Of a stretch of DNA of 64,000 nt, positions 2,236 to 57,354 are shown piece by piece. The DNA is from Paraspadella gotoi (lineage: Eukaryota; Animalia; Chaetognatha). The stretch lies in contig CM119263.1 in assembly GCA_051294375.1 (NCBI GenBank), positions 28,336,549 to 28,400,548 on the forward strand, in the 5' to 3' direction. The first letter of the stretch is position 1. Each line of letters starts with the position of its first letter. A program made the position numbers and the translations under genes. The notes under the pieces were generated by a model. The model did not search any database, was not told the DNA's origin, and worked only from the letters and a program-made list of their open reading frames with translations.

Positions 2236-2304
2236 TACGTCACAAAGAAGCTCACCCGAATCAATATCAAGCCTGAACCGGCTTCGCCGGTCATGGCTTG
2301 ATAA

Positions 2305-2367
2305 TAAGCAGTCCTGAGCTTCGGATCAGGCTGTAACACCGTGTTACAGGCGGGTTAGTCCACCATA
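2305..2367 (-). mobile_element. Internally deleted family-1 fragment
   Basis: Minus strand TATGGTGGAC-TAA-CCCGCCTGTAACACGGTGTTACAGCCTGATCCGAAGCTCAGGACTGCTTA. Confidence 0.7.
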
Positions 2368-9100: not shown

Positions 9101-12100
9101 GTCTTAAAAAGCTTTGTTTAAAAAAATGAGATTACGTTAATCAAAGCGGTTCCAGCGAGATTCCTCCCACACGGTTCCTCGCCACAGGGATTCCTCTCAC
9201 ATCAGGATTCCTCCAAACGGGATTCCCTTCCTACGGATTCCTCCCACACGGGTCTCCCCCGCTCGGATTACACCTACGTGATTCCTCCCTTGATTTCTTC
9301 CTTCTTTTACTTCGGGAATCTTAATGACCAATGACCATATGAATTTCTTTTTACTACAAATACAGCATTTAGGTAGTAGACAGGATTCTAAGGGAAACCA
9401 AAGTGGATTTTATTTCTTCAAAAAACAAAATTACAAGACGGTGTCAATTCCAGGAAGATGTTCAATGCAAATTGTGACCATTATAATATTTATTGCTCCA
9501 TCGGAATCGGAGGTAAGGGTAGAATTAAAGGCGGAAGATTTGTCTCTTCACCAATGATTCGATTCCGGCGGATTTTACTCGAGTCGCTGATCGATTTCGT
9601 TTCGGCAGTCATTTTGATTCGAGGAATTCAGCAAAAAAAAAAAAACTTTGTGCAATATTGGTAGAATATTATCAACAAAATTGATTAAATTTGACCCTAA
9701 GAAGAAGTGGGTTCGATTACGGATTAATTTAAATCATCTGCTGGCATTTCCTAATCAAGAATCTTATATTTTTGCTACTTTTAATAAAATAAAATATGTC
9801 ATTTTTGTCCATTTTGACCTTTGTCTAGAGATTTGACGCCAAGATCGTTGGAGAAAAATTTTCCGCAAAAATTTGTTGATTTTAACGCTTATTATGGAGC
9901 GTGAAGAATCAAATACTTCACACAGAAAGAAAGAGAAAAAGAGAGAGTTAGAGAGAAAGTTCGAGAAAGAAAGAAAAAAGAAAAGTGGAAAACAAGAAAA
10001 AATGTTTCATAATATAGCATGGCCGAATTTTTGCCTAAGCAGTAGTATATCTAAAAACGCGACCGATTCTACGAACAATTTTATCTTTAAAAGTTGTTCT
10101 TACCATGAAAAATCGTTTTTAGTTTCTTCTTAATATAGTCTGATACCGTAATTGGAATGTTTAACGTGAAAGAAATCATGTCTACCGTGTTTTGAAACAT
10201 AGAAATCACCCAGTGAGTTCATGAAATTTGCAAATTACTTGTTTCACTTTTTCTATTTTTATATTTTTATGAAGATTTAGTTTTAATCTTATTATTTAAT
10301 CAAATATATATTGCTTCTCTTCTTAAAAATGTTTATTTATCTAATAATTCAATTTGGGAAGGGGAAGTCAGTGTTGTCTTCTGGACAATAGAGGAGCATC
10401 TATACAACACAAGGTTAGATTACTATCTGTCCTAGTTTCTAATAGATATCACACATCATTTCTGTTAGAAAGTCATTAATGAAAATCATAATATCAAAGA
10501 GGCTGAACAGAAAGGGGTGGAATGGATAATTTTTTGAGGGGTGACCAAGTTATATTATTGATTTTACCAATAGGGATAAGACTACCATGTAGAATTGTAT
10601 GTTCTGATAGGGATACATACCGGGGAAAGGTCTATAGGGGCACCTTTATGTCATGAATACAATTTTAAAAACATATTTTTTCTTTATTCTACCTTTTAAT
10701 TATTTCTTTTTTGAATATTTTTTATCTTTTATTTTTATACAATGGGAAGGTCATCAGTTGGGAACCTATACCCTTCATGGATTTCGGCTCTTTAATCCCA
10801 ATATCCAGGTATAGGCGAGCCCATCACCAAATGGTGAATCCTTCATTGTTGCCTATCTTATATTTTAAATGTATATCTTGAATGTTTATCTGAACAGACC
10901 AAAGCTCTAGCATCACAGCATTATTAATTTAGAGAAATTTTATTCAGGTTTTGTAATAATTTGTAATTTGTAAATAAATAAATAAGTTAAATAATTAGTT
11001 TAATAATAAGTTAATAATTAAGGGTATATTAATGTAAAGTTAACATTAAGTTAATTGGTAAAAGTTAAAAAATAAATTAAATCAGAGAGTTAAATAAGTT
11101 AAATAAGTTAAATAAGTTATTTAAATAATATTGATGTTATTATTATAATTATTATTTAGTGGTTTATTTTTGTTATTTTTTCCTTATCATTTTATTAGGA
11201 ACTGGCATGTATAATCTTTTTTGAAAATAGATTAACATCAGTAACATTATATTTTTTTATTAGCTCCTTATAATTATTAAAAAATTTAATTCCCATTTCC
11301 CAAGTCCTTAAATATATAACCCTGACTTTGTAGTTTTTGCTTAAATTTATAGCTCTATGTTATAAGGGGAAGATAACTAATGCTAACCATTTTTTAAATA
11401 AAGAGTGTTTCATATTTATCAGTGGGAAAAAAGAATTAATAGTTATTTAAGTTTCAATTTCATTGTTAAAACTACCCGAATCAAAATCACTGCCTTTCTT
11501 GAGATTGATTCCTCTGCGATGACAGGAGGTCCAGCTCTTTTGGGACTAACTTAAAAAAAATTGTTTTGGATTGGGTAAATTAAAAAATTTTAAAAAGTGT
11601 TTTCATGTGTAGGAACTTTATGTAGAGGAATCCCCGTGGGAGAAAACAATAAATCTTGAAAATATCTACTATACAGATTGTAGTAAAATGTTCAACAAAG
11701 ATGGCTTTTAAAGCTAATGCAAAGAAATGTTCCTCTCTGATTTTTGCGTATTATGGTTTACTGGTACTCAAATAAAGGAGGTCTATGGTGGATTAAAATC
11801 CACCAACCGTTCATCAGTGGCCATTGGTGCCGGAGGCAAGTCATTTGCCTCCCAAAAGTCCGGTTTCTAGCCCGCTGGTCGCCTTGCTATTAAGAGGGAC
11901 GGGGCGCTTAACCTGCCTGTAACACACGGTGTTCCAGGCTGATCCGAAGCTCAGGGACTGCTACATTGAACGTTCTGTCACTAACACAACAATAAATTAC
12001 TGTCTCTTCAGTTTCCACTTTGCCTATTTATAAACGCAACTGATATTGAACCAATGAGTTTCAGAGAGAAGTCAAAGTAACAAAGATACTGGTCGGAAAA

Positions 12101-18100: not shown

Positions 18101-21100
18101 TCGAACCCACTTCTTCTTAGGGTTCAAATTTAATCAATTTTGTTGATAATATTCTACCAATATTGCAAAAAGTTTTTTTTTTTTTTGCTGAATTCCTCGA
18201 TCAAAATGACTGCCGAAACGAAATCGGATCAGCGACTCGAGTAAAATCCGCCGGAATCGAATCATTGGTGAAGAGACAAATCTTCCGCCTTTAATTTCTA
18301 CCCTTACCTCCGATCCGATGGGAGCATATAAATATTATAAATGGGCACCAATTTTGCATTGATTCACTCTTCCTGGAAATTGACACCGTCTTGTAATATT
18401 TTGTTTTTTGAAGAAATAAAATCCACTTTGGTTTCCCTTAGAAATCCCTGTCTACTACCTAAATGCTGTATTTGTAGTAAAAAGAAATTCATATGGTCAT
18501 TGGTCATTAAGATTCCCGAGTAAGAAGAAGGAAGAAATCCCAAGGGAGGAATCACGTAGGTGAAATCCCGAGCGGGGAGAGACCCGTGTGGGAGGAATCC
18601 CGTACGGGAGGAATCCCGTTTTGGAGGAATCCTGTGTGAGAGGAATCCCGTGTGCGAGGAATCCCGTGTGGGAGGAATCTCGCTGGAACCCTTTGATTTA
18701 ACGTAATCTCATTTTATTTGTAAACAAAGCTTTTTGACTTTATTAATCTTGAGTAGTTAATATAAAATTAATAAAATTAAATCAATGACCAAATTCTTTG
18801 AAACGAGGGTTTCCCAAACTCAATTGATCTATTCAGTAATTTGAGTTTAAAGATTACTCACACCCCAGGCATCAAACACGTCCCTCTTTTGCCTAATAGT
18901 TCATATGACTCGTTCTGATTGACTCTGCTTTTTCTTCCAGAACCTTCAAGCCCGAGGACGAGCTTATCCTGAAGATAGACATAGAAGGTTCCGAATATCC
19001 GGTTCTCCACGCGCTCATCGACACTGGCGCTTATCGCCTTGTTGACAAATGGTATCCTGAAAACTTCTTTTCTCGTTTTTAGTCGGATCTGCTAATCAGC
19101 AATCTTGTCGGGCATTCACTTAAATAATGTCAGAACCTCTAATTATTATAAATTATGCCAAAATGATACCCGTTCGTCCGTCTTTCTCTGTCCGTCCGTC
19201 CAACCCTTAACAAAAAACTACTATTACTCGTGATTGCATGGATGGATTGGAATGAAATTTTGAGGACTGTTGACTCTCGGTATTATTAATATGATTGCCA
19301 ATATTAAAAATATTTGTAACATTTTTATCATTGAGATGGGAGTGAAGAATAATTTACCTCGCTTAGGCTCATTATCTGAGTCTCTCTTTTCCTGGTGAAC
19401 CTTTCAATTTTTAGTCTGGTTTCCTGTGATATTGTCATTCGAATCATTGAAACGTCTGCCAGTATGAAAATAAGTTTCTTGGATGCAATAATAAAATATT
19501 CATTGAAGAGACAGTAATTATTGTTATGTGTTAGTGACTAAACCGTTCAATATAAGCAGTCCCTGAGCTTCGGATCAGGCTGTAACACCATGTTACAGGC
19601 GGGTTAAGCGCCCCGTCCCTCTTAACTGCTAGGCGACCACCGGGCTAGAACCCCGGACTTCCCTACCCACAAACAAAATTTCATTGTAATCCATCCATCC
19701 AATCACGAATAATTGGAGTATAATGCTAAGGGGGACGGACAGACGGACGGATAGACACTATTTTTTTGCATAATTACTCCAATTATGAATAATTAAAGTA
19801 ATTTCCACTCGCATGATTCCATCTAATCTTTATATCTAGCTTAGTCCCACACTTTCCTTTCCACACACAAAATTTCATCTCAATCTATCCATCCAATTAT
19901 TATTCATTAGTATAATTATGTGTTAAAATTAGTAAAAAGATTCAAGTAAATGTGACTTATCTTTTTTCCATTTAAACTAGAGGTCCCAGAAATATCATAC
20001 ATTTCTGAAAGTTCCTGATACCTGCAAAGTTTCTTGTACCAAATTTAGTAGAGAAAACGAATATCACAATAAAAAATTTCTCTGGATGCTCATTGTAGAT
20101 TTTCCATGCCAGTTTTTGCGTCGAACCACTTCCGGTTTTAAAAATTCAGGATTTTTAGAAAAAAATAAGCTGTTATTCAGCCAGCATACTTAAATTAATC
20201 AAAATAAAGTTACCAATAACCTTAATATTACATTTTTTGTTTTGGTTTATAAATAATGTTATAAAAATATTATTACAAAAGGCTTGAAGTTAAAAATTCA
20301 TACTTTTTTAAGCTAAATTGGCCCTGACTACTTCACTAATTTTAATAAAATTTTACCATCTGGTTAAACAAATAGAACTGTCTAAGGGATTTTAAATCTA
20401 TAATCTTTAAACAAAGATATTGAACTTTAAAAAGTTTACAGAGTGATGCAAAAAGAAAGTAGCGAATTAGGTGGAAGGCGATTTGGCCTTTGCAGCTAGC
20501 AAGCCTCTCACTCAACCCAAACCCTAAACCGGGCCCTAAGCAAAACCTTATTCTTAATCAGTTTCCCTCGCTTGGGATATCTAACCTAACCCTAGCCCTA
20601 ACAGCTCTGAGCCTCAACTCTAACCCTAATATCTGTCATGCAAGCCTCTCCCTTACCACTAACCCTCCCGGCCATCAATAAGGCCAAACTTTAATCCTAA
20701 ATTTCTTTCCTCAGTACCTTCCCTAACCCTAACCAAAGCTTCCTGTCGTTTTCTGAGCCTGTCCAAATTGCATAATTGCAATACTTAATCATAGCAACCT
20801 GGCCAAATGATAATTTTGCTGTTAGCTATATTTGTGCCATCAAGGTTGAGTACCTTAATGTTAATTTTTAATTTAGGGGTAGGGCAAGGCTTGCTGACAG
20901 ACATGAGGCCTGAATAAGGGAAAAGTAGTGGCCAGGGATGTTAGGGATTAAGGTTTAGCCTTGGCAATGGCTATGAGGCTGGGTTAGGATTGAGGTTGAG
21001 GGAAAGGGATGGACAGGAATTGGCAAAGGCTGTGAGGTTAGTTTTAATCCTTAATTTCCTTCCCAAGTACCTTTCCTAACCCTAACCCAAGCTTACTGTC

Positions 21101-25039: not shown

Positions 25040-25842
25040 GTTTCGCGGGGTCACAGAAGGTTGTGTGTGGTTACTGCCACAATATATTAATTGAAATGAA
25101 ATTTTGTGGGTGGGTAAGAAAGTAATATTTACTTTATTTTTACTTATATTTACTCATAATGGTTAGACTTATTTAAAATTGGATAAATAAATTGAAATGA
25201 AATTTTGTGAGTGGGTCGGAAAGTATGTGATTAAGCTGGATATTAATTTTAGATGGAATCGTAGGAGTGGAAAAGAGTTTAAAAGAGAAAACCAAATGTA
25301 GCCATAGGCGATGAAATTTAAATGCTAATTTATACAGCGTTAAAATAATCTATAACGAGCATAGATTATAGTATTAAAATATTTTTTGTCAAAAAATTTT
25401 TCTGAGGGTACTAGCCCAATTAAAATTAAAATTAAAATTAAAATTAAAATTTGAGAGAACTAGAAGTTATAAAAAGTGTTCAATTTTTGGCCCGCCTTAC
25501 TGGTTAGGCTTATTTTCATGTTTCAGCTTCAGAAGATATTAATATTGATACTAGGGACCAACTCCGGAGATAATATAAATTTTCGACTATTAGCAAAGTT
25601 TTTTTTGTTGTCTTGACTAAATATTTAAGCAATCATTTATATCATTTATCTTGATTAATACATTAAATATTACTTGTTTTTTTTAACATTATAATTTTTT
25701 TTCTAACAAAGTTTTGATTTAATTTGTACAACGATTTTATTTTTGTATCTTAGCAGACATGTTTCGGCTAATAAATTCGAGCCTTCATCAGCGCTTTTTT
25801 ACAGTTGTAAATTTGAACAGATTTTGTGAGTTAAAGAAAGGG

Positions 25843-25873
<31 letters not shown>

Positions 25874-28800
25874 GAGAGAGAGTGAAGAAGAAGTTCAAGG
25901 TTAAAGTTTCCAACAAGAATTGAGAAAGGACAGTGGTCAGTGGTGAGGACAGATTTTAGACAAGGCCAGTTTGAATAAGTTGTGAAAAAGAAGTGAAAAT
26001 TTGATGAGAGAGAGAGAGATAGAAAGGTGGGGAGAGAGAGAGAGGAAATATATACAATTACATTTGGCAATGTACAACAGGGATAAAGATAATGGAAACT
26101 TGAAATGTTCTGTCTAATAACAATTTGAAATAAATTAATTTGAATTAATAAGAAATTGAAGATGAAAAAGAAAATTGAAATTTATAATTAAAATTAATAA
26201 TCTGTTTTATTTATTTTTTATTATAATTTTATATTATTTTTTATTTTAAACATTTGTTTTAAAGCCTTATAAGTAGAACTGTATTTTTGTATCTTTATTT
26301 TTAAAAAATATTCTATTTGAAAGTACTAATTGATTAATCTTTTTTTTTTTAAATTTAATTTTTACGTATAATTCAATAATTAAAAATTGTAAAAAGTTGG
26401 GAGAGGTCTCAAATTAAAGTTTATGTTTTGTAGATAATGATAGATATATAAACATTCAAACTGTAAGCACACAGACAAAAATAATAAATAAATATTTTTT
26501 CAAATTTTTTTCAAGATTTAACAATTCATAGCTCCTGAACAAAATTAAAAAACTAATACCTATTTACGCCAATAGAAAGCCCAAGGTTTACTGTAGAGGA
26601 TTTAGTCTGTTTTATACCTTATTTTATATTATTTTCAAAGTTATAAAGGGAAAATAAAAAAATGTGACTTAAAAATGCCGAGAATTCGCTTTTTTAAACA
26701 TCAATAATTGGAAAAGTATTTTTTGGATTTTTAAAAATAAAGTATGTAAAATGAAGTATTTTTTCCGCTTTTTAAATTGACGCAGGTTAAATTTGATTCC
26801 GACTGATATTTTTTAAGATATCTATCATTTTTAATGAAAAAAAACGGTTTTTTGCAAATTTTGAAGAGTTGCAAGCACTTATTGATCGATTTTTCAAAAA
26901 ACAAAGATAGAAAAAAATTAGTAGCATATAGGGGACTAATTTGTACTATAGTGCTAAATTCTGTAAAAAACTTTATAAAATTTGCTAAGGCCTAATGACC
27001 ACTGAGCGTTGCATGCTCTGCTATAGCGGACATAATATGCCCACGCGCGTCTCTGTAGGGTCTGACGTGCTGCTGGAAACGGTCTGAGAGAGACTTGTCT
27101 GTCTCGCCCACATATGCTGCTGCACAGGGTTGGTTGCCCGAAACATGTCTGCTAAGATACAAAAATAAAATCGTTGTACAAATTAAATCAAAACTTTGTT
27201 ATTCTCTCAAAAACAAAGAAAGAAAGGATTATACCATGAATTTTTTTTCTTAAAATCTTAAAATTTTTTGATGAATTCTGATAGAGCATAAAAAGTTAAA
27301 CAAGAAATATAATTACAGCTTTTAAAAATTCTTATGTTTTCTGAGCAAAAATCTAAAAAAACTGATAAAATCATCAAAAGATGATAATGATGACAATTTT
27401 TTATGGTTTTTCTTATTTTTGACATATTTATGATAAAAATATTTAAAAAAGAATTATACTTAATATGAGCTATCTGAATCTGGTCTTAAAATTTAAAATT
27501 TCTTAAAAAAATTTTGGGCCTTTCCTATCTATAAATGAATATATAAAAATTTTTTTGTCCATAGATAGTATACTTAAAAATGTATAAATTTTCGTTTGAG
27601 CTTGTACCCACTCTAAATTTTTGACTCACCCCATTGAGTTTCTCTCTCTCTATCTCTCTCTGATTGATTGATTGACCAAATTATTCCAGTTGACCAAACT
27701 TTATCAGTTGACCAAATTATGCCAGTTGACCAAATTATGCCGGTTGATAAAATTATGCCAGTTTAGCAAATTATGCCAGTTTAGAAAATTATGTCAGTTG
27801 ATCATATAAAGCCAGTTGACCAAATAAAGCCAGTTGACCAAATTATGCCAGTTGACCAAATTATGCCAGTTGACAAAATTATGCCAGCTGCAAAAATAAT
27901 GCCAGTTGACCAAATTATGCAAGTTGACCACATTTTGCAAGTTGACTTAATTATGCAAGTTGAAAAAATTATATCAGTTGACCAAATTATGCCAGTTGAC
28001 AGAATTATGCCGGTTGACCAAATTATGCCAGTTGACAAAATAAAGCCTGTTGACCAAATTATGCCAGTTGACAAAATTATGCCAGTTGAGAAAATAATGC
28101 AAGTTTACCAAATTATGCAAGTTGACCACATTTTGCAAGTTGACTAAACTATGCAAGTTGAAAAAATTATATCAGTTGACCAAATTATGCCAGTCAGGGA
28201 TGTGGAGCCGAGCCTTTTGTTTTTTCCATCTTAACTCATTTCCACTCGGACGATTCCTTCGAAACTTTTTTTCCTGCTCAATCACACACTTTCCTACCCA
28301 CACACAAAATTTCATTTCAATCCATCCATCAAATCACGAGTAATTGGTGTTTTTTGCTAAGGTGGGACGGACAGACGAACAGACAGATGGACCGACATCA
28401 TTTTTTTTGCATAATTTATCATAATTCGATGTTCTGACCTGATATAAGTGAATGCCCGACAAGATTGGCGGGGCAGAACGACGGACCGACAAAGTGAATT
28501 ATACAGCCGGAATCTGCTGTAAGCAGATCTGGCTAAAAAGGTGAAAATAATTGACAAAATTTGTAAGCCAAAAAACTTATTGCATAATTTTAATTTCCAT
28601 TTATCTCTGTTGTTTCCATTATGGTGGACTAAAATCCACCAACCGTTTATCAGCGGCCATTGGTGCCGGAGGCAAGTCATTCGCCTCACAACCCAAAGGT
28701 CCGGGGTTCTAGCCCGGGGGTCACCTAGCAGTTAAGAGGGACGGGGCGCTTAACCTGCCTGTAACACGGTGTTACAGCCTGATCCGAAGCTCAGGGACTG

Positions 28801-31800
28801 CTTATATTGATCGGTTCTGTCACTAACACATAACAATAATTACTGTCTCTTCACCATCAAAGAACATCCTCCACACCCTCTTGGTTCTCACGCGTACCCT
28901 TCCTACTTGCAGGTGAAGTTCCATTTTTAAACTGGAATCATAGGCATTTAAATTCTCGAGGCAAATCTCTCATAACTGCGGGAAAAACATTCGCCAGCCA
29001 CGGCCTCTCTCCTCATCTGTTGCTGACCGATGCGTGGAATGTGTCGAAAGAACTCCTCGATCAGGTTTTAATTTTATTGCTAATTACTTTTGTTGTCCCT
29101 GGTATTATCTTCAACTATCATTGTCAGTCTTATTTATTATTACTGTTGCTGAAATATAGGACATTTTACAACTAAAACTATTTTTTAGCAGACTGCAGCT
29201 CATAAGCATTACAAATGTAATTGGCCTTGTCAAACCAGTTGCATTTCCGTAACAATTTTTAGATTAAAATCCATCAAATACTCTTAAATCCGGAAAGACT
29301 ATGGTGAACTCTGTCAAGAAAGGCCTGTGACCATCATTATATTATTATATTATCATATTATTATGTAATCAAGAAGCTGAAAAAAAAATCCTTTGGGTTT
29401 TCTGAAAGATTTGAATTTTTTAAAATTGATAAAAAGTTAATTCCGACATTTCTGAGAGCTGATAACATGTGATATAATCGTTTTATTTTAAAAATAAAGA
29501 AATCATAAAAAACTGATTAACTGTATTCATTTGTAAAGTGACAGTACGCTTGAGACACTCTGTATTTATCTTATTAAATTCTATCGTCTTTTTTTTTACT
29601 TCGGCGGTGTATAAATTTTATTACTCGTAATAACTGTTAATCTAACAATAAAACCCTTAATAAAGCATTCAAAGATAACAAAATATAAGATATTTAATTC
29701 CCTTCATAATTATTTTAATGTAATAAAGGTCTGAATAATTCTACGATGATAATTATTTTTATCTGCTTATCAGCAGATTCCTACTCTATAATTCACTTTG
29801 TCGGTCCGTCGGACCACCCCCAAAATAACTCATTTTTATCATATCAGAACATCGAATTGTGATAAATTATGCAAATAAATGATGTTCGTCCGTCCGTCCG
29901 ACTGTCTGTCAGTCCGTCCCCCCTTAGCATTAAACACCAATTACTCGTGATTGGATGGTTGGATTGGAATAAGATTTTTTGTGTGGGTAGGAAATTGTGT
30001 GATTGAGATAGATATAAAGTTTCGATAGAATCGTGCGAGTGGAAATGGGTTTAAATGGAAAAAGCAAAAGTCATATTTACTTGAAGCATTTACTTATAAC
30101 TGTTATATTTATTAAAAATAGGATAGATAAATTGAAATGAAATTTTGTGTGTGGGTAAGAAAGTATGTGATTAGGCTGGATATAAATTTTTTATGTAATC
30201 ATAGGAGTGGAAAAGAGTTTAAAATAGAAACTAAAAGACATTTATTTCAATTTTTAAAAGTTTCTCTCTCTCTCTCTAATTGTTCGATTTATTGATTGAT
30301 TTACCAAATTATGTCAGTTGACCAAATTATGGCTATTTACCAAATAATGCAAGTTAACCAAATTATGCCGGTTGACCTTATTTTGAAAGTTGAAAAAAAA
30401 ATATACCAGTTGACCAAATTAAGCCAGTTGATTATATTATGCAGACATTGTTTGCTCAAACTTGTTTGTATACTTTTATCTTCCTTTTGGGAAATGGCGA
30501 TTTTTGAAGCATAAAAGCTGCTATGAAATGGCTCTAACATTGTGGAGTATGAAAAAATCAAATGATTAAAATTTTATAAAAGTCATATTTAGCTAAAATA
30601 ATATGAAAATATAGACCCATAAAAATATTTTGGTAAGTTTATTTACAAATTTTATATTTTATTAACAGATTTTTCGCTATATTTATTAATAATTAGTAGT
30701 AAATATAGGCTAAAATTAAAAAAATTAAAATTTTAAACCGGATGCCGATTTGAATTTCTTGCACAGATTTCAACAAATTCTTTTGGTTAAAAATAATAAA
30801 AACTATAATAATTTTTTTTTAAATTTAAGTTTACTTTTACTCATAATTATTAATAAATATAGTGAACTTTTAGAGAGAAAACGAAAATTTCGTTATAACA
30901 ACAAGTGAAATTATTAATTCGGACATGTTTCGACTCTTATGTTTTTGTGAGTCTTCATCAGCAAGCAATTCAATAACTGTATGGTGAACTAAAATCCACC
31001 AACCATTCATCAGCGGCCATTGGTGCCAGAGTCAAGTCATTTGCCTCCCAACCCAAAGGTCCGGGGTTCTAGCCCGGTGGTCGCCTAGCAGTTGAGAGGG
31101 ACGGGGCGCTTAACCCGCTTGTAACACGGTGTTACAGCCTGATCCGAAGCTCAAGGACTGCTTATATTGAACGGTTCTGTCACTAACACATAACAATAAT
31201 TACTGTCTCTTCAACTATTCACCGCGACCACTCGCTGGTTTAGTAGTGGGTAGAGACCATGCGGCGATGCAGGACCAAAGAGGGAGCCAATGTGACCGTG
31301 GGGAGGACCGGGTGGGAGGTCACCGAAAAGGCATGGCGAGAAGGGTGGGACGGTGGGCCATGACGCGGACATGAAAAGAAAAGAGGGGGAGAACAATTAG
31401 TGTTGCTGCACAGTACCAGTACTTGTACACATGCAGTCGCCATGCACACTCGCACTCGTTCCAGGGGATGATTTCACTCACCGGGTGAGACAGCGATGAG
31501 GTCCTACGGGGGGAATAGTGGACACAGACGCTCTGCACACGGCGATCGAGTTGGCAGACGGAACCATATGGAGTAAGACCGTCGGCGAGAGGAGTAACGG
31601 CGCCGTTGGGAGAATCAGCGGGAGAGACGTCCGGCATGGTGTAAGGAGTCCAATTAAAAATTTGATAAAAAACTGGGAACAAAAACATGAGAAAAAGGAA
31701 ACAAAGAAAAAACGAAAAGGGCGAAAACGAAGGAAGAAAAGGTCGATGGGGAGAGGGGGGGACACAAGGGACGAATGTTCTGAGGGAGCGAGTGCAACAA

Positions 31801-34800
31801 CGAGTGAAGGAGTCAACCGTGAGACGGGATGATTTCACTCAGCTGGTAAGACAGCGAGGAGGTCCTGCAGGGGGAATAGAAGAATAAGTAATGAGGGATA
31901 GATAAGTTAAAGGTAAGTGAAATGATAAGATAAGAAAGAGCTCAAAATGAGCTGTGGGGGCGTTACTCGCAAAAACATGAGAGTCGAAACATGTCCGAAT
32001 TAATAAATTCACTCGATGTTATAACGAAATTTTCCATTTCTCTATAAACTCTCCCAATTGACAAAAAAGAAAGTTCAAATACAATGTCAGCTAACTTTTA
32101 ATGAAATATAAAATTTAAAAATAAACTTACCACATTATTTTCATAGTTCTTTATTTTTTTTAATATTAGTATTTTATATACATTAAAAATCGTCATCTCC
32201 GACATGAAAGATAAAATTAGACAAAAAAAAATGGTCATCACCATCGAATTCTTCAGACCTTATTACAGTAAAATGAATAGAGTTAATATCTTATATTTTG
32301 TTATCTTAAAAAGCTCGACTCCTTAAGCTTCACCACCCTAACCCTAAACCTCCCATAACCCTAAAATCCCGCTGACCCAAGTCGGCTAATGTAAAAATAA
32401 GCAGCTTTGGCCTTTTGTAAATTTCAAATTTTGTTAATTTTAACTTTTTCTTATAAAACTTTAAAAATTTAAATGAAATCTGTTAATATCAGTTTTAAAG
32501 AAATGATTATAAGTTGGTTTAAAAGAAAAAAGTTGAAACACAATTTTTTCCTCTTCAACCCAATCAAAGGCGAAACTTCGTGGGCTCCGCGTCGTTCGAC
32601 CGACTATAGTATTTCCTCCTCTGCATCCCGATTCGCCGTACAAGGTATCATAAATATTAGTATTAATTAATATTTCTTAACGGAGAAATTTATTACACAT
32701 AATTACATAATACTTACACATTCATCTTTTTAATTATTATATATAAAAGCCAAATGTTCTTTTTTTATGTACGTAACTAAAATAACAAAATGCATTTGTA
32801 CAACTCTTCTTGTTTGGTTCCTTTTTGTCCGCTGAACAGTGAACACGCTTGTATCTTTAAAATCCCAATAAGTTGAATGGAAATGAACTCACTAACGCCA
32901 GAAAGTGATAGAGTTCAATCGCTGTTTGGCTCGAATTTTAACATAAAAGATTTAGAGATGAAACGAAAAATTCGTTGTAATAGCAATTTTTATTTTTATT
33001 ATTTGGTAAAAAAAAATACAATGTTTCGACTCTTAGTGTTTACGAGTCTTCATCAGCAAGTGAATTCAATAGACCAAATTTTTTAAAAACATTAGTTTGA
33101 GAGAGAGGAGAAAGAAGAGAAAGAGAGTTTCCAACAAAGAATTGAGCAAGGATAGTGGTCAGATGTGAGGACAGGTGAAAGTAGGGAAAGAGAGAGCAAA
33201 TGATTTTTGAAATGGTGAAAAGAAAGAGAAAGAGAGAGAGAGAGAGACAGGGATCAATACATTAGCAATGTACAAAGTTAAAAATTTTAGAAAAAACTAA
33301 ATATTTAACAAAAGTAATAATAAATTAATTGTTAGCTGATGATTGTTAGTAAGAAAAATGAAATAGAAGAATAAGTGATGAGGATAGATAAGTTAAAGAT
33401 AAGTGAAATAGTAAGGTAAGAAAGAGCTGGGGGGGCGCCAGCTCATTTTTGAGCTCTTTTCTTACCTTTACTATTTTACTTATCTTTAACTTATCTATCC
33501 CTCATCACTTATTCTTCTATTTCATTTTCTCTTACTAACAATCATCAGCTAACAATTAATTTATTATTACTTTTGTTAAATATTTAGTTTTTTTCTAAAA
33601 TTTTTCACTTGTTGTACATTGCCTAATGTATTGATCCCTGTCTCCTCTCTCTCTCTCTCTCTTTCTCTTTCTTTCCACCAATTTCAAAATCATTTGCTCT
33701 CTCTTTCCCTACTTTCACCTGTCCTCACATCTGACCACTATCCTTGCTCATTTCTTTGTTGGAAACTCTCTCTTTCTCTCTTTCTCTCTAAACTAATGTT
33801 TTTAAAAATTTGGTCTATTGAATTCACTTGCTGATGAAGACTCGTAACACTAAGATAGGGGGAGACTAACTCAATAAGGTGGTTAAGAAATTGAATTAAG
33901 CACCTCCTCAAACGAAAATTTTAGACATTTTAAAAATTTGAATTGACAAATTTTTTATATTACTCCATACTCCATATATTAATTTTTAATATTTATTTAT
34001 AATAGAAGGCTAAAATTTTTTTTTGGATTTTTTGATTTTTAAGATCAGATTCACGTAGCTTGCAAAAAGTTGTCTACACAAAGTATAATTCTTTTTCGAT
34101 ATTTTGATCATAAGTATGTGAAAATATGAAATACTATTTATAATCATCATCATCATCATTTTTCAATAATTTTATTACTTTTTCTTAATTTTGACCAGAA
34201 AGAAACATAAATTTTTTTTGAAAGTTGTAGTTAAATTTTTTATTTAACTTTTTATGCTCTATCAGAATCCATCAAAAGTTAAGATTGATTAAAAAAAATT
34301 TTATCATTATTATGTAATATTGTAATTTTAATAGCAACAATAAAAGCATTAAAATCGAACTTTTTTAAAAAATTCTTTTTTTACCTAAAAGTAGACTTCA
34401 AGACTAAAGTTTTGAACCCCCGCCCCTATTGAATTTAATTTCATAGTAGATTTCTAACTAAGAGTCGAAACATGTACAATAATAAAAATAAAAATTGCTA
34501 TTACAACAGAATTTTTCGTTATAATCTCTAAACTATTTTAAATAGCAAAAAAGAAAGTCAAAATACAACATAAAAGATAAATTAAATTTTAATTATTCTT
34601 TTCACAGAAATGTTTAAATCTTTATATTTTAGTTAAATTAATTATATATTTCTTGAGTATTTGTTAAAATTTAATTTTTTTTAATAAATTTATTACAAAA
34701 TTTACATGAATCTACACGGTTCTTTTTATAGGAGGAAAAAGAAAATCTAAATATACCATTTCTGGAAAAGATGAAAAACCTGAAAGGTTGCTGTCAGGAC

Positions 34801-37800
34801 AAGAGCTTGGGCTAAATCGAAAAATTATTTCAAACTCATTTTTTTTAATTGCATTTGAAGTTGGTAAGTTAATTTTTGAGAAAATTTGATGACTTTTGTA
34901 CTAATTTTGCAAAATATAGACTCAATTCAAACATCTATATGTCAAACGATATCAGTAAACCGAGAGCTTATATTTAAGACCACTCCCAGCTTTCTGCGAC
35001 TTTTGGCTAAAAAGTTATTAATCAAAATATGTTATTTTTTCTTTAAAAAAGTAATGAAATGGTGAATATTATTGAGAATATAATAAGACTTTAATCTAAA
35101 ATAATTGAGGATACCTACGAGTGCTATAGACATTTTTTTTTCAATTAATTCATAAATAAAATTTTTCTTCAAGCTTAAATATAGGCACATCATCCCCCCA
35201 AAAAATTGAAAAAATATTAATTAAAATTTTTAATAATTTACCATAATGATATGATATAATTTTACTCAATATATATGGACTAGAAACTATAGGATGTGAC
35301 CTTCATTTTGAGCCTATTGCCAACTCTTTATGATAAATATTTATTGAGATACTACCAAAAAAGCCCTAAAAATCTTTAAAAAATATAATTTTTAATTTAT
35401 TTAAGTCATTTTTCAGTTCATATATGACTTATTTTAAGTCAAATGATTTTATTCAGCAGATTAAAGAGTAAGGCACATATAAAATACAATTAGTAGTATT
35501 ATTTTATAATAATTTAATCAGGACAATTAATTTTCAGCCAATTTTTACCAAAATTACAACTTTTAATTTTTACAGCAACAAAGGACTAAAAAAAGTAAAA
35601 AATTTTTGATGATAAAATCTGTAAGCCAAAAGACCTTAGAATGTATCATATAGGATTAAAAAATTTTCTTATAAAGATTTAAAAATAAAAAAATTATATA
35701 TATAAATTAAAGATTGAAGAAAAATAATGATATTACAGTTAGTTTTATATTATTGATCATGATTCTATGTTAGAAAAGATAGCCATCTTTTTTAACCACT
35801 AATTATTAAAAGTTTTAGTTACTTAAAAGAGTAAGTAATTTTTTTTAAAAAAATTTATATTATAAAAACTCTCTTCCTTATAAAAAAATCGATAATTTGG
35901 TAAGAAATAAACAAGTTTGAGCAAACAATGTCGGATCTGCCTACGAAAAATAATTAATTAATTAATCGATTAATTAATTAATTAATTATAATATTTAATT
36001 ATAAATTTATATACAGCTTATCATCATCAATGTCCTTAAAATGAAGTAAATGTGACTTATATTTTTCCATTTAAACTCATTTCCACTGGCACAATTCCGT
36101 CAAAACTTTATATCTAGCTTCTTCACAAACTTTCCTTCCCACTCACAAAATTTCATCTCAATCTATTATGGGTAAATAAGTAAAAAGAGTCAAGTAAATG
36201 TGACTCATATTTTTTTCATTTAAACTCATTTCCACTTGTACCGAAACTTTATATCAAGCTTCGTCACACATTTTCCTACCCCCACACAAAATTGAACTCA
36301 ATCTATCCATCCAATTATGATTAATTAGAGTATTTATTTGTTAAAATGTGGATAAGGCGCTAAGTGGGCTGAAGATGACTATCCGTAACTTCTATAACCC
36401 CCTTTAGTAGCCATGGAACGGGTCCTGGGCTTGGAACCAGGCTTGAGGGGTTGCCACGCCCCAAGGCGGCTTACGGCCGTCCTCACGCTTCCCACAGGGT
36501 AGGTACTGGGTTGGGATTGAACCCGGTACCTAGTGGTCATGAGCTGATGGCTTTACTCAATGAGCCACCGGGTCAGGACTGAAGGTGTCATGCTTATAGG
36601 CGGGGTGAACCTAGGCAATGCCCGACTACATGCCCCCCAGATTGTAACCCACCCTGCACTGCTTCCAGTGGAGGGAGGGAGCAATCTTCAGCACGTCCAT
36701 GGGCCTGGAATCAGAAGGTTGGAATACGCTCGACAGGATGGGCTCACCAGTGTGGATAAGGCGCTAAGTGGGCTGAAGATGACTATCCGTAACTTCTATA
36801 ACCCCCTTTAGTAGCCATGGAACGGGTCCTGGGCTTGGAACCAGGCTTGAGGGGTTGCCACGCCCCCAAGGCGGCTTACGGCCGTCCTCACGCTTCCCAC
36901 AGGGTAGGTACTGGGTTGGGATTGAACCGGTACCTAGTGGTCATGAGCTGATGGCTTTACTCAATGAGCCACCGGGTCAGGACTGAAGGTGTCATGCTTA
37001 TAGCGGGGTGAACCTAGGCAATGCCCGACTACAAAAATAAGTAAAAAGATTTTAGTAAATGCGACTTAAGGTTTTTCTATTTAAACTCATATCCACTCAC
37101 ACGATTCCGTTGAAACTTTATATCCAGCTTCATCACACATGTTCCTACCCATACACAAAATTTCATTCCGATCCAACCAGCCAATCACGAGTTATTGGGG
37201 CTTTTTGCTAAGGTGGACGGATGGATGGATTGATTGACTGATTAATTAATTATTGATTAATTAATTGGCTAATTGATTAATTAACTGATTAATTATTTGA
37301 TTTATTATTACATCCTGCATATACATTTAATATAAAAGGAAAAAAATCATAATCAATTAGTGTAACAGGTTTTTTGTTTTTTTCCATTTAAACTCATTTC
37401 CACTCAAACGATTCCATCGAAACTTGGTTTCCTGTTCAATCACACACTTTCCTACTCACATACAAAATTCCAGGTCAATCGCCCCATCCACTCGTGAGCA
37501 ATTGGTGTTCAAATCGTGAATTATATTTTTTTGTTTTTCCATTTAAACTCATTTCAACTTGGACGATTCCATCGAAACTTTATATCCAGCTCAATCCCAC
37601 AATTCCCTACCCACACACAAAATTTCATTCAAATCCATCCATCCAATCACGAGTAATTGGTGTTTTTTGCTAAGGTAGATGGACGGACAGACGGACGGAC
37701 ATCAATTTTTTTGCATAATTTATCATAATTCGATGTTCTGACATGATATAAGTTAGTGCCCGACAATATTAAGGGGGCTAACCGACGGACCGACAAAGTG

Positions 37801-44570: not shown

Positions 44571-46119
44571 ATCCTCCATTGACTGGGTTTTAATCCTAAT
44601 CCACCTAATCCAATGGTTTTTAATCTCAGAGAATCCTCTCCACTCTTTTCCTCCTTACCCACCAAATCCACCACCCCCCCACACTTCCCCCCCCCTTTGA
44701 CTAAAACGCGGATCGTTTCTTTCCTTCGCTTCATTTTCTTTTTCGCTTCACTTGATTTCCTTCCCCTTTTTTTTGTTTCAGATGAGTCTTACCCGTTCTA
44801 AGCTTTACTCACCCCTTTCATCTCAGACTTACTATATGATTCAGGTTTTTTCCTTATCAATGAGCGTGTAGAGGGGTGGACCCCCGCCACAAAACCGAGG
44901 AGCCCGGGCCATTGGGGGTTACGGGAGAAATTCGTTGGGCTGAAAAAAAAAAATAGAATAAAAAAAAATGACACATTACGTTGAGTATTAACATTGACAA
45001 GCTCTTAATTTTGTGTAAAAGACTATTTTACAAGTTTAAATTTCAAAACCTTAAAAGAACATAGGTATTAAGAAACTTTTTTTACTTCAATATTTGCACA
45101 TTAAAATAAAATTATATCAATAAAGGTTCTAAAAAACACTTGTCACTTATTCTTATTTTGTTTAGCAGAAAGTTGCGGAAGCAGAAGGCTGGTATCGATT
45201 CTAAGAGAGAAAAAAAATAGGATGAAAAATCCATTTCTGGGTTAGTGAGACTGTTGCAAACTTCTTTCCTTAATATATATTTTTAAAGAAACCTTTAAGG
45301 TTCACACTACATTGGCGATTAGATTAGGTTTTTTTTTCATTTAGATCAGTTATTTATATTTATTTATCTATTTATGAGCACCTAAAAATTCTAAACCACA
45401 AAATCGGTTTGACCTAAAAATAGTATTACGATTCTGAAACGCTCTACTTTGCGAACCAATCGACCGACGCTACATTAACAAGCCGGTTCCGCCAAGCAGT
45501 GGCGGTTCCGCCGCCGCCGCCGCTGTTGCCGCCGCCTCCGCCGCCGCCGCTTCCATTTCGACGCCAATATTCTCGTCGTATCGAATTCATTTTTTTTCCA
45601 ACCCAAAAGCCTCGACAAACATTATGACGTTGTTGGTTTTCGTTTACACTCGAACGCTAAAAACGAAACATCGTCGACGAAGAGATAAAACAGTTTTGTC
45701 TTTTTTTTTTACGAAAACCGAAACGGAGAAGAAACAACTGAGATGTTGAAAGAACGAAACGAACAAAGAGAGTGTTGGACTGTTGGAACTACAGATGACA
45801 CAACATCAGGGGAAAAAGAATAGTTTGCGATCTGCGGCACTGACCGCAAACTTTCATCGTACATTTTGTAAAGATTGTGAGCAATGAGGTAATACGGCGT
45901 AATATGAACACTATGTAGAGCGCAAAACTTAAAGTGAACGTAAAATGATTTACCATGCAAACTTAACTTACTAACAAACTAATTAAAACCACTTACAAGC
46001 TAACTTAATTAACTAACCACCTAATTAACTTACCTAAGTAAAATAAACCAATTAATTAAACCAAAAAAATAAACTAAGCAACTATTTAAACCAGAGATCC
46101 CTCCACCACCATTTCTACC

Positions 46120-48945
46120 ATGACCACCACCGACGCATTCCTCTCAACCACCTCGGCCCACGGCCTGCCCCGTCTCCGTCAGGGCTCGCGCAGGCGCCGT
46201 GCCGTTTGGGCTTTCGTCTGCGTCGCGGCCTACTGCGGCCTCTTGACCTGGACGGCTCTGCTCTTCTTTCAATTCTTCGATCCGGACGATCTCTCGACGA
46301 GCGTCTCCGTGGAGACCCTCAGCGGGACCTACGACGAAGACGGGGACTTCGCCAGCGACGAGGTCTTTCCTCGACCCGTTCTCTGCGTGCCGGAGGTAGA
46401 GAGCCAGTGGAGATCGAAGGGGTGAAGCCTGAAGGGCATAAGATTGTTATTTAAACTGTCTTTAAAATTTGAAATTAAATTAAATTTAATTCATCGCTGA
46501 GATAAACTTTAAATGGATTAAGTGACTTTTTAGTTAATTATTTAATAGACATATACATGCTTTGATGCTTTCATGATCATCATCATCATCATCATCGCCG
46601 TCGTCTTCGTCATCATAAACATGAGATAGTAATAAAAAAAATATTGTGATTGTGTTTTTATATTTAAGTTGTCATCCATCATAATAATTTTCTTAAAAGA
46701 TTAAATATTTCATACAACTCAAACCAGATCACCTAATCACTATTCAAACTATAAGTATAAATATTGAAACGTTCCAAGTGACCTGTAAATCTGCTCCACC
46801 CCAGGCTCGCCCAGCTGATTGGCACCTCTTCCGCCGAGCCCGTCTCGGCCGCGTCTCCAACGTCCACGACGACGAAGAGAACATCACCTACGCTCCATTC
46901 GACTTCCGGCCGACGCTCTTCGATGCCCAGAGCGCCTACGGACTCGGCTCCGACGCGGCGTTGGGCCTCTGCGCATCCTTCCACGAATCCGCCGAGTACT
47001 ACATCATTCGATGGAACGGAGTCCAGAGTCTTGACTTGTACATCACGATGACCAACACCAGCCACGCGCCGGTCTACAGTTTCGAGAAGGTTTGGGATGG
47101 GGTTGGGAATAAATAATGGAGAGTTTTTTTTCTTCTTGGGAACTTTGAAATATTCCCGATTGTCCCTCGAAAAAGTGGGCCTTTATGGCAATGGGATGGA
47201 GTGTGGTACCCGGGGTTTCTCACCAATTGGCGCAGGTGTTGCAGACCCTAAATGACCGCCTCCTGTCGCTGGCATGTTTACACCGGTATCGTCACGTTTA
47301 ATATTTTGTATCTCATACAAACTAACTTTTACCCTTACCCTCTTCAAGAAAAAGCTAACCTGGCGAGACAAGGTGGTCTCCGTTCGTTTGACCGAAATGC
47401 AAACGACTCATTTCTTCGGCTCAAACTACACAGACCGATTTCCCTCGGAGGCGAACGAAGGACTTTCCTTCTACGACGAAAACTTTTGTCTCGACTCCTG
47501 TTTTTACAAGGTGGCCTTTTTTTGAAAAAAATGTTGGAAAATTGTATTTTTGTTTTAAAGTAGTTTATATAAAAGAATAATCAATCTTTAAACTGACAGG
47601 TTTATTTTTTAGCTCATTTTTTATATTAAAAAAGTTTAAGGGCAAGTTTTATAAAAGAAAACACAATTTAAATTTTTGAATTTTTTAAATTTTATTTTCT
47701 TGTTAATTATAGATATTTGGATATTAGAGCTAGATTTGGATATTTAGATATTAGAGATATATTTGTTATATGTGTTATATTTTAAATATAATTATAATTT
47801 CGTTACATTAAATGTCTTAAATATAAAATATTTTCTCGATTGAACCCCCCCTCCCCAATCCACTCGAGGTTTGGCGGGAAAACTCCTCATTCGCCCGTCA
47901 CGAAAAGGCCCGACGTCACTACGAAAATCTGGCGACGCAACGTCAGGCCGTCCTACAGCCCGACAAATGGCGGGAAATCCTGGCCGACGTTTGCGCCAAC
48001 GCGACCGATATGGTCGTCCACTTTCCTTATCATTTTCTCTGCGACTTTCGCAGCCAAGAGTGCAATCGCGCCTTTAAGAAGTGAGTTGTTGGGAAAACCT
48101 GACTTTGTCTATTCATCCTCCCGTATTTTCGCAGTTTTATTAGAATGAATGTATGTATTTATCAATGTCAATATAACAATATTACTTCTCGCTACTCAGG
48201 CGATAAGTATAACAGAAACTCTACCGAAAGATAAGAAATTATGAGTTTCTGAGAATGGAAAAAGCTAAAGTTGATGAAACCGATTATATGATTGTTTTAT
48301 ATACTTTTTAATCAGATAAAGGACATGATGAATTAAGTTATCAATTCGTTAATTAAATGCATCGTATAGTTATAAAATTTAAAGCAAAATTTGATGCAGA
48401 TTATATAATCAAATATCAATTTCTATTAAATTATTTATAAAATGGTTGAAAGAAAAGTTTATAGGATCAATCGAGACCTTAATGAACCAAGCTCAGTCTT
48501 TGCCTTTATATATCTTAATTAAATCCACATTCTATATTCTAAAGTTACTATCCGTCCACCCCCTCCCATCCCCTCCATCCGCAGATACCACTCCATCATC
48601 CCTCGATGCCAGGCGATCTGCAAGCGACGCCACGTGGACGAGCGATTCCGCCTGATCGCCGACAGCCTGGGCGACGACAAGATCCGGCTCAACCGGATGG
48701 AGGCCTACGTCGCCGTCAACAAGACGGAGCTCTGGTTCCACAGCACTTCCCTCAAGCGGACCGTCTTGCGGCAAAAGCCCAAGATGACCAGCGTCGACCT
48801 GCTGGGGCTGGTGGGCGGGTACATGGGGCTCTTGGTCGGGGCCTCCGTCGTCACCCTTTGCGAATTCGCCGAGTTCTTCTTCAGCAAAGTTTGCGGTGGG
48901 TTGAAAGGGAATGAGAAAGTGGGGAGGAAAGGGGGCGGGAGTTAG
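46120..48945 (+). CDS. DEG/ENaC (amiloride-sensitive channel family) subunit, divergent
   Basis: Exons 46120-46395 (STTSAHG pre-M1, TM1, FPRPVLC), 46805-47089, ~47236-47510 (5' part unresolved; ...FYDENFCLDSCFYK), 47869-48080, 48585-48945 (LLGLVGGYMGLLVGASVVTLCEFAEF, TM2 with GAS filter). An upstream exon is possible. Confidence 0.9.
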
Positions 48946-51154: not shown

Positions 51155-52071
51155 TCCTTTCGCTCTACCTCTCAATTCAATTTTTTTAAAGCAATACAAT
51201 TTCGAAATACACCAAATAATTTTTTTGCATAATTCCCTAATTTTTTAAACTACGGATTTTGACGAAGCCGCTAAGCATCGTTCTGAGAGTCTCGGTTGAG
51301 CGGGTCAAGTCGCAAACTAACCTTTAAAGTCAAACCTTTAAGAAAGACACCTTCAGTCGTGATGCCGTGATTGAGCGGTTTGAAAAAGGCATAATCAACT
51401 TCTACTGCTTTTTAGGCCTTAAGCCCTAATACTAAAACTATTCTGAAAAAAACAATGTTAAGCTAAAATCTCTTTCACAAAATTATTTTTTGCCAACTCT
51501 TCTCCATATTTCTAAATATTGAAGTCATAATTAGTAGGATTAACTTTTACAAGTTTTACGCTGATCCAATCGCCTTAAATTAATTTTTGATGGCGGCTTA
51601 GATTATCGGGTTGAGACGAGAGAATAAATTAGGGATGACATTAGTGTCGGCTATTGACGCTTGGGATGACAAAAGGGTTTGGTTATGGGTCGCCATAAGG
51701 GGTGATTTCGAAATGAGAAATAGAGCAAAAAGGAAAGAGAGATGATGGTTTTTGAACTTAACAATATAAAAACAAGAACGGTAATTCAAATGTGTTGCAC
51801 CGCAATGACTGCCTTATCACGTGTATTTCTCGTGACATAACATGACGTGACATGACATGACGTGATATAACATGACTACTTGACTACAACAACTTTCTAA
51901 GCCTTTGTATTTATGACATGCACTGCATCAAAATTCCATCTTTTATGCCTTATAGATTTAGGATTTCCTGAAGGCGGCGCTTGCAGTCCCTTAGATTTGA
52001 GGTTTTTTCTGTCTTAACAAAAATAAGAGAGAAAGAAAGAAAGATAAAAATAACGAGAGAGAAAAAGAGAG

Positions 52072-55939: not shown

Positions 55940-57354
55940 ATGTCAGTCGAGATTCTCAGCATGGGTCTTCCGCAACAATTCGCCGCCAAATCCTGGGAAT
56001 TATTCGCTTTAATTTTGGAAAATTCACAAGTCGACGGCTTTGATCACGTGATCGATTTTGGATGCGGAACGGGGGAGACGACGCAGCGACTGGCCGAATG
56101 GGTGGGAGAGTACAATCGCAAAATTGGACGGGCTGGGTAAAGAAAAATATTCATTTATAACCAGAGAGGGAAAACGTTAAATCTGTTTTCCACATCATAA
56201 TAACAGGGGTCTTCATTAACTTTTACTTTTTCAGTTCCAAACTTTTCATCACCGGCACAGACGTATCCGCTGTCGAAACGTCCTTCTGCGAAAATGTATA
56301 TTCCTCGTCCACTGATGTCTCAAAGGCGGAGTTCTTTTTCAAAGCTGCCGACATCGGCGACAGTACGACGATGGCTCCGGAGTGGGAGTCGGCCTTCGAC
56401 CTGGTCACAAGTTTTTGGACGAATCATTCGGTCAAAAATCAAGAGGAGATTTTGAAAAATATTCATTTCTGCCTGAAGCCAGGGGGATATTTCTGTCTCT
56501 ATGATCAAACGGGATTCGATGCGATTCCTGGTTTGTTGCAAGATTACTTGTTTTACTATATTATACTAAATTAGACAAAATTTTTTAAAGAATAAGAAAG
56601 GTTTTAGTCTAACATATTTCACTCAAGTATTAAAATTTAACTTAAATTATTATTTGATTCATTTCATATTGAATTGTGTAATGGGAAGAGGGTTGTTAGT
56701 GTTGTCTTCTGGAAATGGACGGAGCATCTATATAACACAAGGTTAAAAATTACTTTCTGCCTTGTTTTCTAATAAGATATTTTGAATTTGATCATCACAT
56801 CGGGATATTATTTTAAGATTTATGAATCTAATTTATAAACATTTCTATTTGCTTAAGCGGACTACGATAAGGAATTGAAACATTACCGAATGACAAAGGG
56901 TAAGTGATAATTCACAAATAAACGAACAGACATACAATTCTAAGCAAAGAAAAACTTTCTCTCATCAGTCGGCCTCGGGATGCTTCCCAAATGGTCACAA
57001 TACCTTCCCGCCGGTGGCCTCAGCGAGCTCGTATTCCCCGGTCAAGCGGCCTATCAATCATGGGGTCGCCCTGACCCGGCCGCCGGTTACACCACCATGG
57101 TCTTAGAGGCGGGATTCCGCGTCATTTCCGCCCGCAACGAATTCTTTCGCTACGATTACAGCGAGGAAGAGTTGGCGACGACAGTCAAGCATTTCTCCCG
57201 GCGGGTGGAAGGTCTGCCCTCGGAATACCTCGAGGAATTCGTGGGAGATTTCGTGTACGAGTACAAGAGGCTCTTTACTCGAGAGGAAAGCGATGAGTGG
57301 AGAAAATTGAAAGCGGACATGGGAGTCATTGTTGTTGTGGGACGAAAACTTTGA
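55940..57354 (+). CDS. Class I SAM-dependent small-molecule methyltransferase, JHAMT-like (~292 aa)
   Basis: Exons 55940-56136, 56235-56530, 56969-57354 with GT-AG and matching phases; motifs VIDFGCGTG, ITGTDVS, AADIG, FDLVTSFWTNH, LKPGG. Confidence 0.9.

Follow-up and report, generated by a model that had tools for sequence, protein, structure and literature searches.

The window, that is, the whole stretch of 64,000 nucleotides that was analysed, carries a short non-coding retrotransposon of the TRIM type, here called family A, and copies of a second, shorter repeat, here called family B (Table 1). Pfam matches in the window are to an ENaC/degenerin channel (a split gene) and to a methyltransferase, in pieces; together with the repeats, they indicate an animal host. 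In the contigs of sequencing run X9, the flanks of the family A element are covered as well as the element itself.

Table 1 Features of the window discussed in the text
Feature	Position	Strand	Description and basis
Whole TRIM (family A)	36347..37033	minus	687 bp, 56% GC, in AT-rich repetitive surroundings
TSD, left copy, AAAA	36343..36346	.	flanking repeat and empty-site joint
TSD, right copy, AAAA	37034..37037	.	flanking repeat and empty-site joint
5' LTR	36751..37033	minus	283 bp, TG..CA; direct repeat
3' LTR	36347..36630	minus	284 bp, TG..CA; direct repeat
PBS-like tract	36732..36749	minus	begins TGG, 1 nt past the 5' LTR (36749); position and sequence
Short polypurine tract (G6)	36633..36638	minus	2 nt ahead of the 3' LTR; sequence
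A-box-like motif (36971) and B box (36928), 5' LTR	36918..36971	minus	43 nt apart
A-box-like motif (36567) and B box (36523), 3' LTR	36513..36567	minus	44 nt apart, no cloverleaf
P5-type twister fold, 5' LTR	36822..36900	minus	predicted cut 36878/36877; Rfam, pattern and phage-model matches
P5-type twister fold, 3' LTR	36418..36495	minus	P5, P2, T1, P1 (36474-36479), UAA, T2, P3, P4; predicted cut 36473/36472
Predicted unit RNA	36473..36877	minus	405 nt, with PBS, PPT and one LTR-equivalent; from the two predicted cuts
Family B copy	28620..28853	plus	234 bp, TA..CA, CCAT on both flanks; twister fold 28727-28802, predicted cut 28751/28752
Family B copy	30980..31213	plus	94% identical to the copy at 28620; one P4 mismatch; flanks match in 3/4
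Family B copy	11784..12010	plus	88% identical; P5 and P4 partly broken; flanks not matching
Family B copy, first 79 bases missing	19504..19658	minus	twister fold intact except for the third P2 pair

The family A element had been described in the original prediction as an intact, non-coding TRIM with a 4-bp TSD, a PBS-like TGG, a PPT and two near-identical TG..CA LTRs of about 284 bp, and this description was borne out by the alignment of the LTRs, by contigs representing the empty site and by a scan for open reading frames. The LTRs measure 284 and 283 bp and show no substitution between them; they differ by three single-base indels, all of which lie in homopolymer runs. The internal part between them is 120 bp long, and no open reading frame of at least 100 amino acids overlaps the element. 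The PBS-like tract has what we take to be a likeness to tRNA-Trp. Contigs of the same organism (four in run X1 and one in run X9) join position 36342 directly to 37034 and thus skip 691 bases, that is, 687 + 4; this joint demonstrates an empty site and the duplication of 4 bp, the duplicated sequence itself (AAAA) being low in complexity. The family is large, 2473 contigs of run X1 being matched by a 111-base piece of the LTR. In run X1, 111 contigs extend past the end of the LTR at 36630 into mixed AT-rich flanks (agreement 0.38), and hence the element has been inserted at many sites. In view of this anatomy, the many insertions, the 4-bp TSD and the identical LTRs, family A is a recently mobile TRIM.

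A and B boxes were expected in each LTR, and both LTRs do contain an A-box-like motif and a B box that matches the consensus, at a distance of 43-44 nt, which is the spacing found in tRNA genes. The motifs TRGCY and GGTTC occur in family A and YGG is absent; the A box agrees in part with the consensus of the Helenus elements, to which we return below. No tRNA was found in the LTRs by ARAGORN at its default threshold, and the tRNA-like region folds into two hairpins and not into a cloverleaf.

Past the boxes, each LTR had been reported to contain a twister string on the minus strand, and it was found exactly as given, with U^A at both predicted cuts (Table 1) and a spacing of 405 nt. The top Rfam family in both LTRs is Twister-P5 (RF02684), with 17.1 and 16.8 bits and E values of 0.84 and 1. 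These scores lie below the gathering score of 37.6 for RF02684, so that the significant Rfam match sought for the prediction was not obtained, and the Rfam listing at E 1 for the entire window contains no twister. The low scores are explained by a P1 of 6 nt without a loop and by an insert of 21-22 nt in P3; because scores of this kind fall under the Rfam cut-off, standard screens would miss such motifs. The predicted fold resembles RF02684 in the order of its parts (P2-GA-T1-P1-UAA-P2-GC-P3-P4-P5, with a P4 loop of 8 nt), in both pseudoknots and in the catalytic G and A; it differs from RF02684 in the loop-less P1, in an open or bulged third pair of P2 and in the score below the cut-off. The catalytic G, the U^AA, the A.A pair, the pseudoknots T1 and T2 and the P4 with its 8-nt loop are all present. 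P2 can be drawn as two pairs followed by a C x C mismatch or as three pairs with a bulge; the third pair is C x C in the copy at 36347-37033 and is open in four of the six aligned copies of families A and B. A closed P1 hairpin is not seen, the place of P1 being taken by a loop-less, self-complementary stretch of 6 nt.

A sequence pattern for P5 twisters derived from phages had two matches in the window, which are the two LTRs, and none in 100 shuffles. A relaxed structural descriptor, in which T1 was left free and P1 was allowed to span 4-30 nt, matched the window five times (twice in family A and three times in family B), always with a P1 of 6 nt, against a background mean of 0.005 matches over 200 block shuffles.

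For comparison, a reference set was assembled from two pattern scans of phage contigs (101 and 74 loci; 165 unique matches), of which a filter on P2 and P4 that is blind to P1 kept 140 and dropped 25. All 12 of the phage-set loci that were submitted to Rfam passed the Twister-P5 cut-off. A P2 of 3 bp occurs in 75/140 of these twisters, an A-U pair in the pseudoknot T1, as in family A, in 44/140, and a P1 closed by C-G, again as in family A, in 42 of the 44 that have the A-U pair; since all three features are common in the phage set, they can be regarded as natural. The form of T1 seen in family B was found in three phage twisters above the Rfam cut-off (20 of 23 loci were scored against Rfam for this comparison). 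Phage members of RF02684 thus include both the A-U and the C-G variant of T1. The span of P1 in the 140 phage twisters is 14-30 nt and never 6. A pattern for short P1 was matched by 42 prokaryote and 32 phage loci, and none of these 74 passed P2, P4 and T1 together, four of them having a good P4 with a failing P2 or T1; among 77 phage loci that matched a loose pattern based on sequence only, one passed P2, P4 and T1. The sole metagenome match to the 19-nt core lies in a bacterial gene that lacks the rest of the fold, and it was rejected as due to chance.

A covariance model, R1, was built from 72 of the phage twisters (those with a P2 strand of 3 nt and a P1 stem of at least 4 bp) and contains no sequence from the window. 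Its top two matches in the window are the LTRs of family A, which score 25.6 and 25.2 bits (with E values near 2e-5, the calibration being rough), and the next match has 15.7 bits. The matches that follow the LTRs led to family B, which the original prediction had not mentioned and four copies of which scored between 15.7 and 8.8 bits; a further match, at 10.3 bits, proved to be unrelated AT-rich sequence and was discarded. Family B shares its layout with the LTRs of family A: about 40 bases come first (the tRNA-like part begins at about +33 in the copy at 28620), then a tRNA-like part whose boxes are separated by 44 nt, and then a P5-type twister fold. BLAST detected no similarity between family A and family B, and Rfam gave no twister match for family B at E 10. 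The copies of family B start with TA and end with CA and carry no tail; they are probably solo LTRs of a second TRIM.

The two families allow the predicted fold to be examined by covariation. A structure-blind MAFFT alignment brings the twister cores of families A and B into register, and 94% of the cells are then paired, against 23-52% when the partners are slid. Between A and B, 8 of the 23 pairs are changed on both sides (two in T1, two in P1 and one each in P2, P3, P4 and P5), a count that used four copies of family B and omitted the fragments at 2304, 8201, 12898 and 15963; as covariation it represents two families with about one event per pair and not deep statistics. The catalytic G and the motifs UAA, GC and AAGC are invariant between the families, and T1 and T2 are 100% paired in all six aligned copies. 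Within family A, changes were scored at about 36443-36470. In this interval, the changes in T2 stay below 2%, and the sole common change in the core (17%) lies at 36470, where it replaces a G-U pair of P2 by A-U. The tip of P3 is variable, with 81% of the depth at 36450 and 47% at 36453. A majority change at 36494, among the 40 of 213 variants listed, converts a U-G pair of P5 into C-G. Run X11 contains a change at 36446 by which a G-U pair of P3 becomes G-C, and a single contig end of the same run shows a possible variant with three full pairs in P2. Hence, the twister fold proposed for both LTRs is upheld by an independent model built from phages and by covariation against family B.

It was considered whether the motif could instead be a second tRNA-like cloverleaf, in which P5 is the acceptor stem and P4 the T arm, so that it would be a part of the promoter or a signal for RNase P/Z and its likeness to twister would be due to chance. 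With its threshold lowered to 80%, ARAGORN does give the motif of either family the shape of a tRNA, and the P4 loop of family A opens like a B box. However, the window yields 27 ARAGORN calls at 80%, which puts these drawings at noise level; the loop has 8 nt, the B-box start is missing from the loop of family B, and neither the covariation of T1 nor the fixed UAA and GC are explained by a tRNA fold. This explanation is regarded as highly improbable.

A twister-derived fold need not cut, and the more serious objection is that the motif is non-cutting, or inactive in the copy at 36347-37033, in which case an ordinary Helenus TRIM would carry it as a relic or as a structural signal. The sub-threshold Rfam score, the 6-nt P1, which has no precedent in the phage set, and the C x C in P2 agree with this, as does a competing hairpin. 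Folding without pseudoknots favours this hairpin, which occupies T1, P2 and T2 in either family with a pair probability of about 0.9. The nested twister stems of family A reach -12.7 kcal/mol as against -28.8 kcal/mol for the optimum fold, and in plain folding the motif does not surpass shuffled sequences (z 0.27). On the other hand, two families that lack BLAST similarity have kept all catalytic bases and both pseudoknots through compensatory changes, which is not expected of a relic. Moreover, in tests of about 2000 natural twisters, imperfections in P1 and P2 were tolerated, and it was the pseudoknots and catalytic bases that were sensitive (PMC11662667); the parts reported there as sensitive are intact in the LTRs of family A. 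An inactive fold is thus considered distinctly unlikely. As judged from sequence comparison, family A appears to be a real case of a TRIM of the Helenus type in which each LTR has a predicted twister fold that is conserved but atypical, and two such families would be present in one animal genome.

If the twisters are active, family A would be an LTR retrozyme of animals, with a twister as its ribozyme and a promoter for Pol III, a reading to which we give an even chance, with its RNA steps taken from structure and analogy. Pol III would begin transcription some 55 nt inside the 5' LTR and would read through the element, which offers no T-run as a stop. A twister in each LTR would then cut the RNA, either as a monomer with a P1 of 1-2 bp or as a pair held together by the self-complementary P1, and would release the predicted unit RNA. 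As the doubly cut RNA would have no terminal repeat, it would need to be ligated into a circle, probably by a host ligase as proposed for plant LTR retrozymes; the junction of such a circle would be identical in sequence to the LTR. By the same analogy, reverse transcription primed by a tRNA would run round the circle and restore the LTRs, and the integrase of a helper would insert the product. A TSD of 4 bp has been linked to Gypsy helpers in the animal Helenus elements (PMC10886601), and on this basis a Gypsy helper is indicated for family A. Against this reading, the predicted stability of the unit RNA is not unusual (z -0.93), whereas the circles of retrozymes have been described as highly self-paired (PMC7761336, PMC7229834).

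An active twister could also serve mainly to set the 3' end. The 5' twister would often be skipped and the 3' one would cut. The resulting linear RNA would retain some 100 nt of repeat, from the tRNA-like part as far as the cut, and strand transfer could proceed in the ordinary way; the ribozyme would then replace the T-run of Helenus, and no circle would be needed. The distribution of T-runs speaks for such a role. The minus strand of the family A element contains no TTT; when the 403-nt unit was shuffled 2000 times with its dinucleotides preserved, 1.2% of the products were equally free of it (the absence of TTTT is unremarkable, 55% of the shuffles likewise having none). Family B has no T-run longer than three, and the Helenus LTRs that were compared have T-runs just past the B box (PMC10886601). 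Cleavage would be slowed and left incomplete by the competing hairpin, and a short repeat defined by Pol III is known from Cassandra (PMC10886601). Against this, the two twister cores are identical and nothing observed favours the 3' one; a TTTT starts right where the 3' LTR ends in the copy at 36347-37033; and plant LTR retrozymes with the same layout of two ribozymes yield unit circles (PMC4918200). A role confined mainly to the 3' end is considered unlikely.

The P1 of the candidate retrozyme deserves separate treatment. It is a self-complementary stretch of 6 nt in both families, the sequences of which differ; neither this self-complementarity nor the missing loop had been pointed out in the original prediction. 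In a monomer, it can form 1-2 bp at most; between two copies, it forms 6 bp, with computed energies of -10.7 and -8.3 kcal/mol in the two families. A transcript with two LTRs holds two copies of P1, and the unit circle would hold one. Short palindromic hammerheads of Penelope-like elements were reported to cleave as dimers (reviewed in PMC6765202, PMC7761336). In these minimal hammerheads, one helix is likewise a short palindrome and the ribozyme occurs twice per transcript; they differ in that both the ribozyme and the class of element are other ones and in that cleavage as a dimer was tested there, being predicted from the sequence in family A. It is a tentative possibility that animals hold true LTR retrozymes, as two unrelated families in one genome, in which a promoter for Pol III derived from a tRNA is combined with an obligate double twister: the P1 strands of the two LTRs would pair, the two-LTR transcript would cut itself, and the circle, having one twister, would stay intact as the template for reverse transcription. 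A loop-less P1 kept in two unrelated families provides a sharp test of whether natural twisters can be obligate dimers.

Among the known systems, the Helenus elements (TRIMp3; Kojima 2024, PMC10886601) are close to family A, and the likeness to TRIMs with tRNA-like LTRs that had been proposed holds for the defining features that could be compared. According to PMC10886601, these are short non-coding TRIMs of 311-1263 bp, a range that includes the 687 bp of family A; they have tRNA-type A and B boxes in both LTRs, a PBS and a PPT, and the animal members have a TSD of 4 bp. The missing YGG does not set family A apart, as the requirement is worded there with 'most'. In the Helenus LTRs that were compared (PMC10886601), however, a T-run and the end of the LTR follow soon after the B box, whereas family A continues past the B box with the twister fold and about 70 further bases and has no T-run. 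The word 'twister' does not occur in the available text of the Helenus paper, which describes no ribozyme there. A search of the accessible Helenus consensus file for twister-loop strings on both strands gave no twister-like context (line breaks in the file can hide short strings), and no entry seen in it begins with the same 10 nt as the PBS of family A. 'Twister' is also absent from the available text of PMC12859917 and of bioRxiv 10.64898/2026.07.22.740005. The view that an LTR element combining a tRNA-like promoter with a twister is undescribed is supported for the open-access papers searched in full text, among which none on an LTR element with a twister was found.

A twister that acts in animal retrotransposition has been reported for Perere-3 (RTE) of Schistosoma mansoni, which carries T-variant twisters (Liu et al. 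2021, PMC8501958). The twister of Perere-3 has a weak P1, as has that of family A, for which activity is predicted. It differs from family A in that the permutation is of the P1 type and in that the element is autonomous, belongs to the non-LTR class and is cut once, by a twister at its 5' end; LTRs, a PBS and boxes for Pol III are absent from it.

The likeness to the plant LTR retrozymes (Cervera, Urbina and de la Pena 2016, PMC4918200; PMC7761336; NbRZ1, PMC12029980), which had also been anticipated, is supported: the LTRs, PBS, PPT, 4-bp TSD and lack of coding capacity are all found, and the twister fold sits where the hammerhead would. As described in these reports, plant LTR retrozymes are non-coding LTR elements with a ribozyme in each LTR and a TSD of 4 bp, and they share with family A a PBS, a PPT, a unit RNA (predicted in family A) without a terminal repeat, solo LTRs and a proposed Gypsy helper (PMC4918200). 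The LTRs of family A have no Rfam hammerhead match, and none of the eight matches of a hammerhead-core pattern in the window lies inside the element. Features of the plant elements themselves are hammerheads of type III, occurrence in flowering plants, units of 600-1000 nt and circles that have been demonstrated, and no tRNA-type promoter is described for them in the passages compared (PMC4918200, PMC7761336). In the literature as available, LTR retrozymes have so far been confined to flowering plants and hammerheads, and the retrozymes of animals have been described as being without LTRs, PBS and PPT (PMC7229834). If cleavage is true, retrotransposition of LTR elements by way of a ribozyme and a circle would extend to animals and to a second class of ribozyme; it would suggest how a TRIM driven by Pol III sets the ends of its RNA without a terminator and would give the twister a new role.

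A second repeat in the window, family B, consists of a 234-bp LTR-like unit in which a tRNA-like part is combined with a twister and whose termini are TA..CA. Its copies are likely solo LTRs. The acceptor stem is kept in the tRNA-like part of the copy at 30980, and that of the copy at 28620 was called as tRNA-Val(CAC) by ARAGORN, only at the lowered threshold of 80%, a noise level giving 27 calls in the window. Large duplicated stretches, at ~4650-12780 and 13050-23220, flank an N gap near 12780 and possibly represent an assembly duplication. Family B copies 11784 and 15963 have common flanks, as do 8201 and 19504, and neither pair represents independent insertions.

The 687-bp element with a twister fold in each LTR (family A, the TRIM) is embedded in a different AT-rich repeat, which is present in high copy number and has subunits of ~155 nt; a conserved part of this host repeat forms the empty site of the TRIM. 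Three places in the window hold degraded remnants that resemble the LTR of family A (69-94% across 16-78 bases), none of them with a recognisable twister.

Features of the window with their positions and strands
Feature	Position	Strand	Remark
Family B copy	28620-28853	+	
Family B copy	30980-31213	+	
Family B copy	11784-12010	+	
Family B copy	19504-19658	-	
Family B copy	8201-8352	+	
Family B fragment	2304-2367	-	
Family B fragment	12898-12935	+	
Family B fragment	15963-16002	-	
AT-rich host repeat around TRIM	36050-36346 and 37034-37700		many further copies elsewhere
Decayed piece similar to family A LTR	23187-23258		
Decayed piece similar to family A LTR	23792-23807		
Decayed piece similar to family A LTR	51335-51362		
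Hammerhead-core pattern matches	5072-5164, 22710-22801, 25761-25791, 30927-30961, 33023-33056, 14469-14492		
Exon pieces, amiloride-sensitive (ENaC/degenerin) channel and methyltransferase	46090-48945 and 56161-57354	+	Pfam

The hammerhead-core pattern was matched eight times in the window, against 0.9 matches expected by chance, with two pairs in inverted arrangement; these appear to be minimal hammerheads of Penelope-type repeats. One inverted pair corresponds to the Rfam mir-2242 match at 22700-22811. A long, near-perfect inverted repeat at 33365-33518, with sub-threshold Rfam microRNA matches, is probably a foldback element.

Up to five P5-type twisters were seen clustered within 1.6 kb on phage contigs (loci L236, L234, L244, L233 and others). 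Among the phage twisters, the class with a 3-bp P2 matches the one with a 4-bp P2 in frequency (75/140 versus 63/140).
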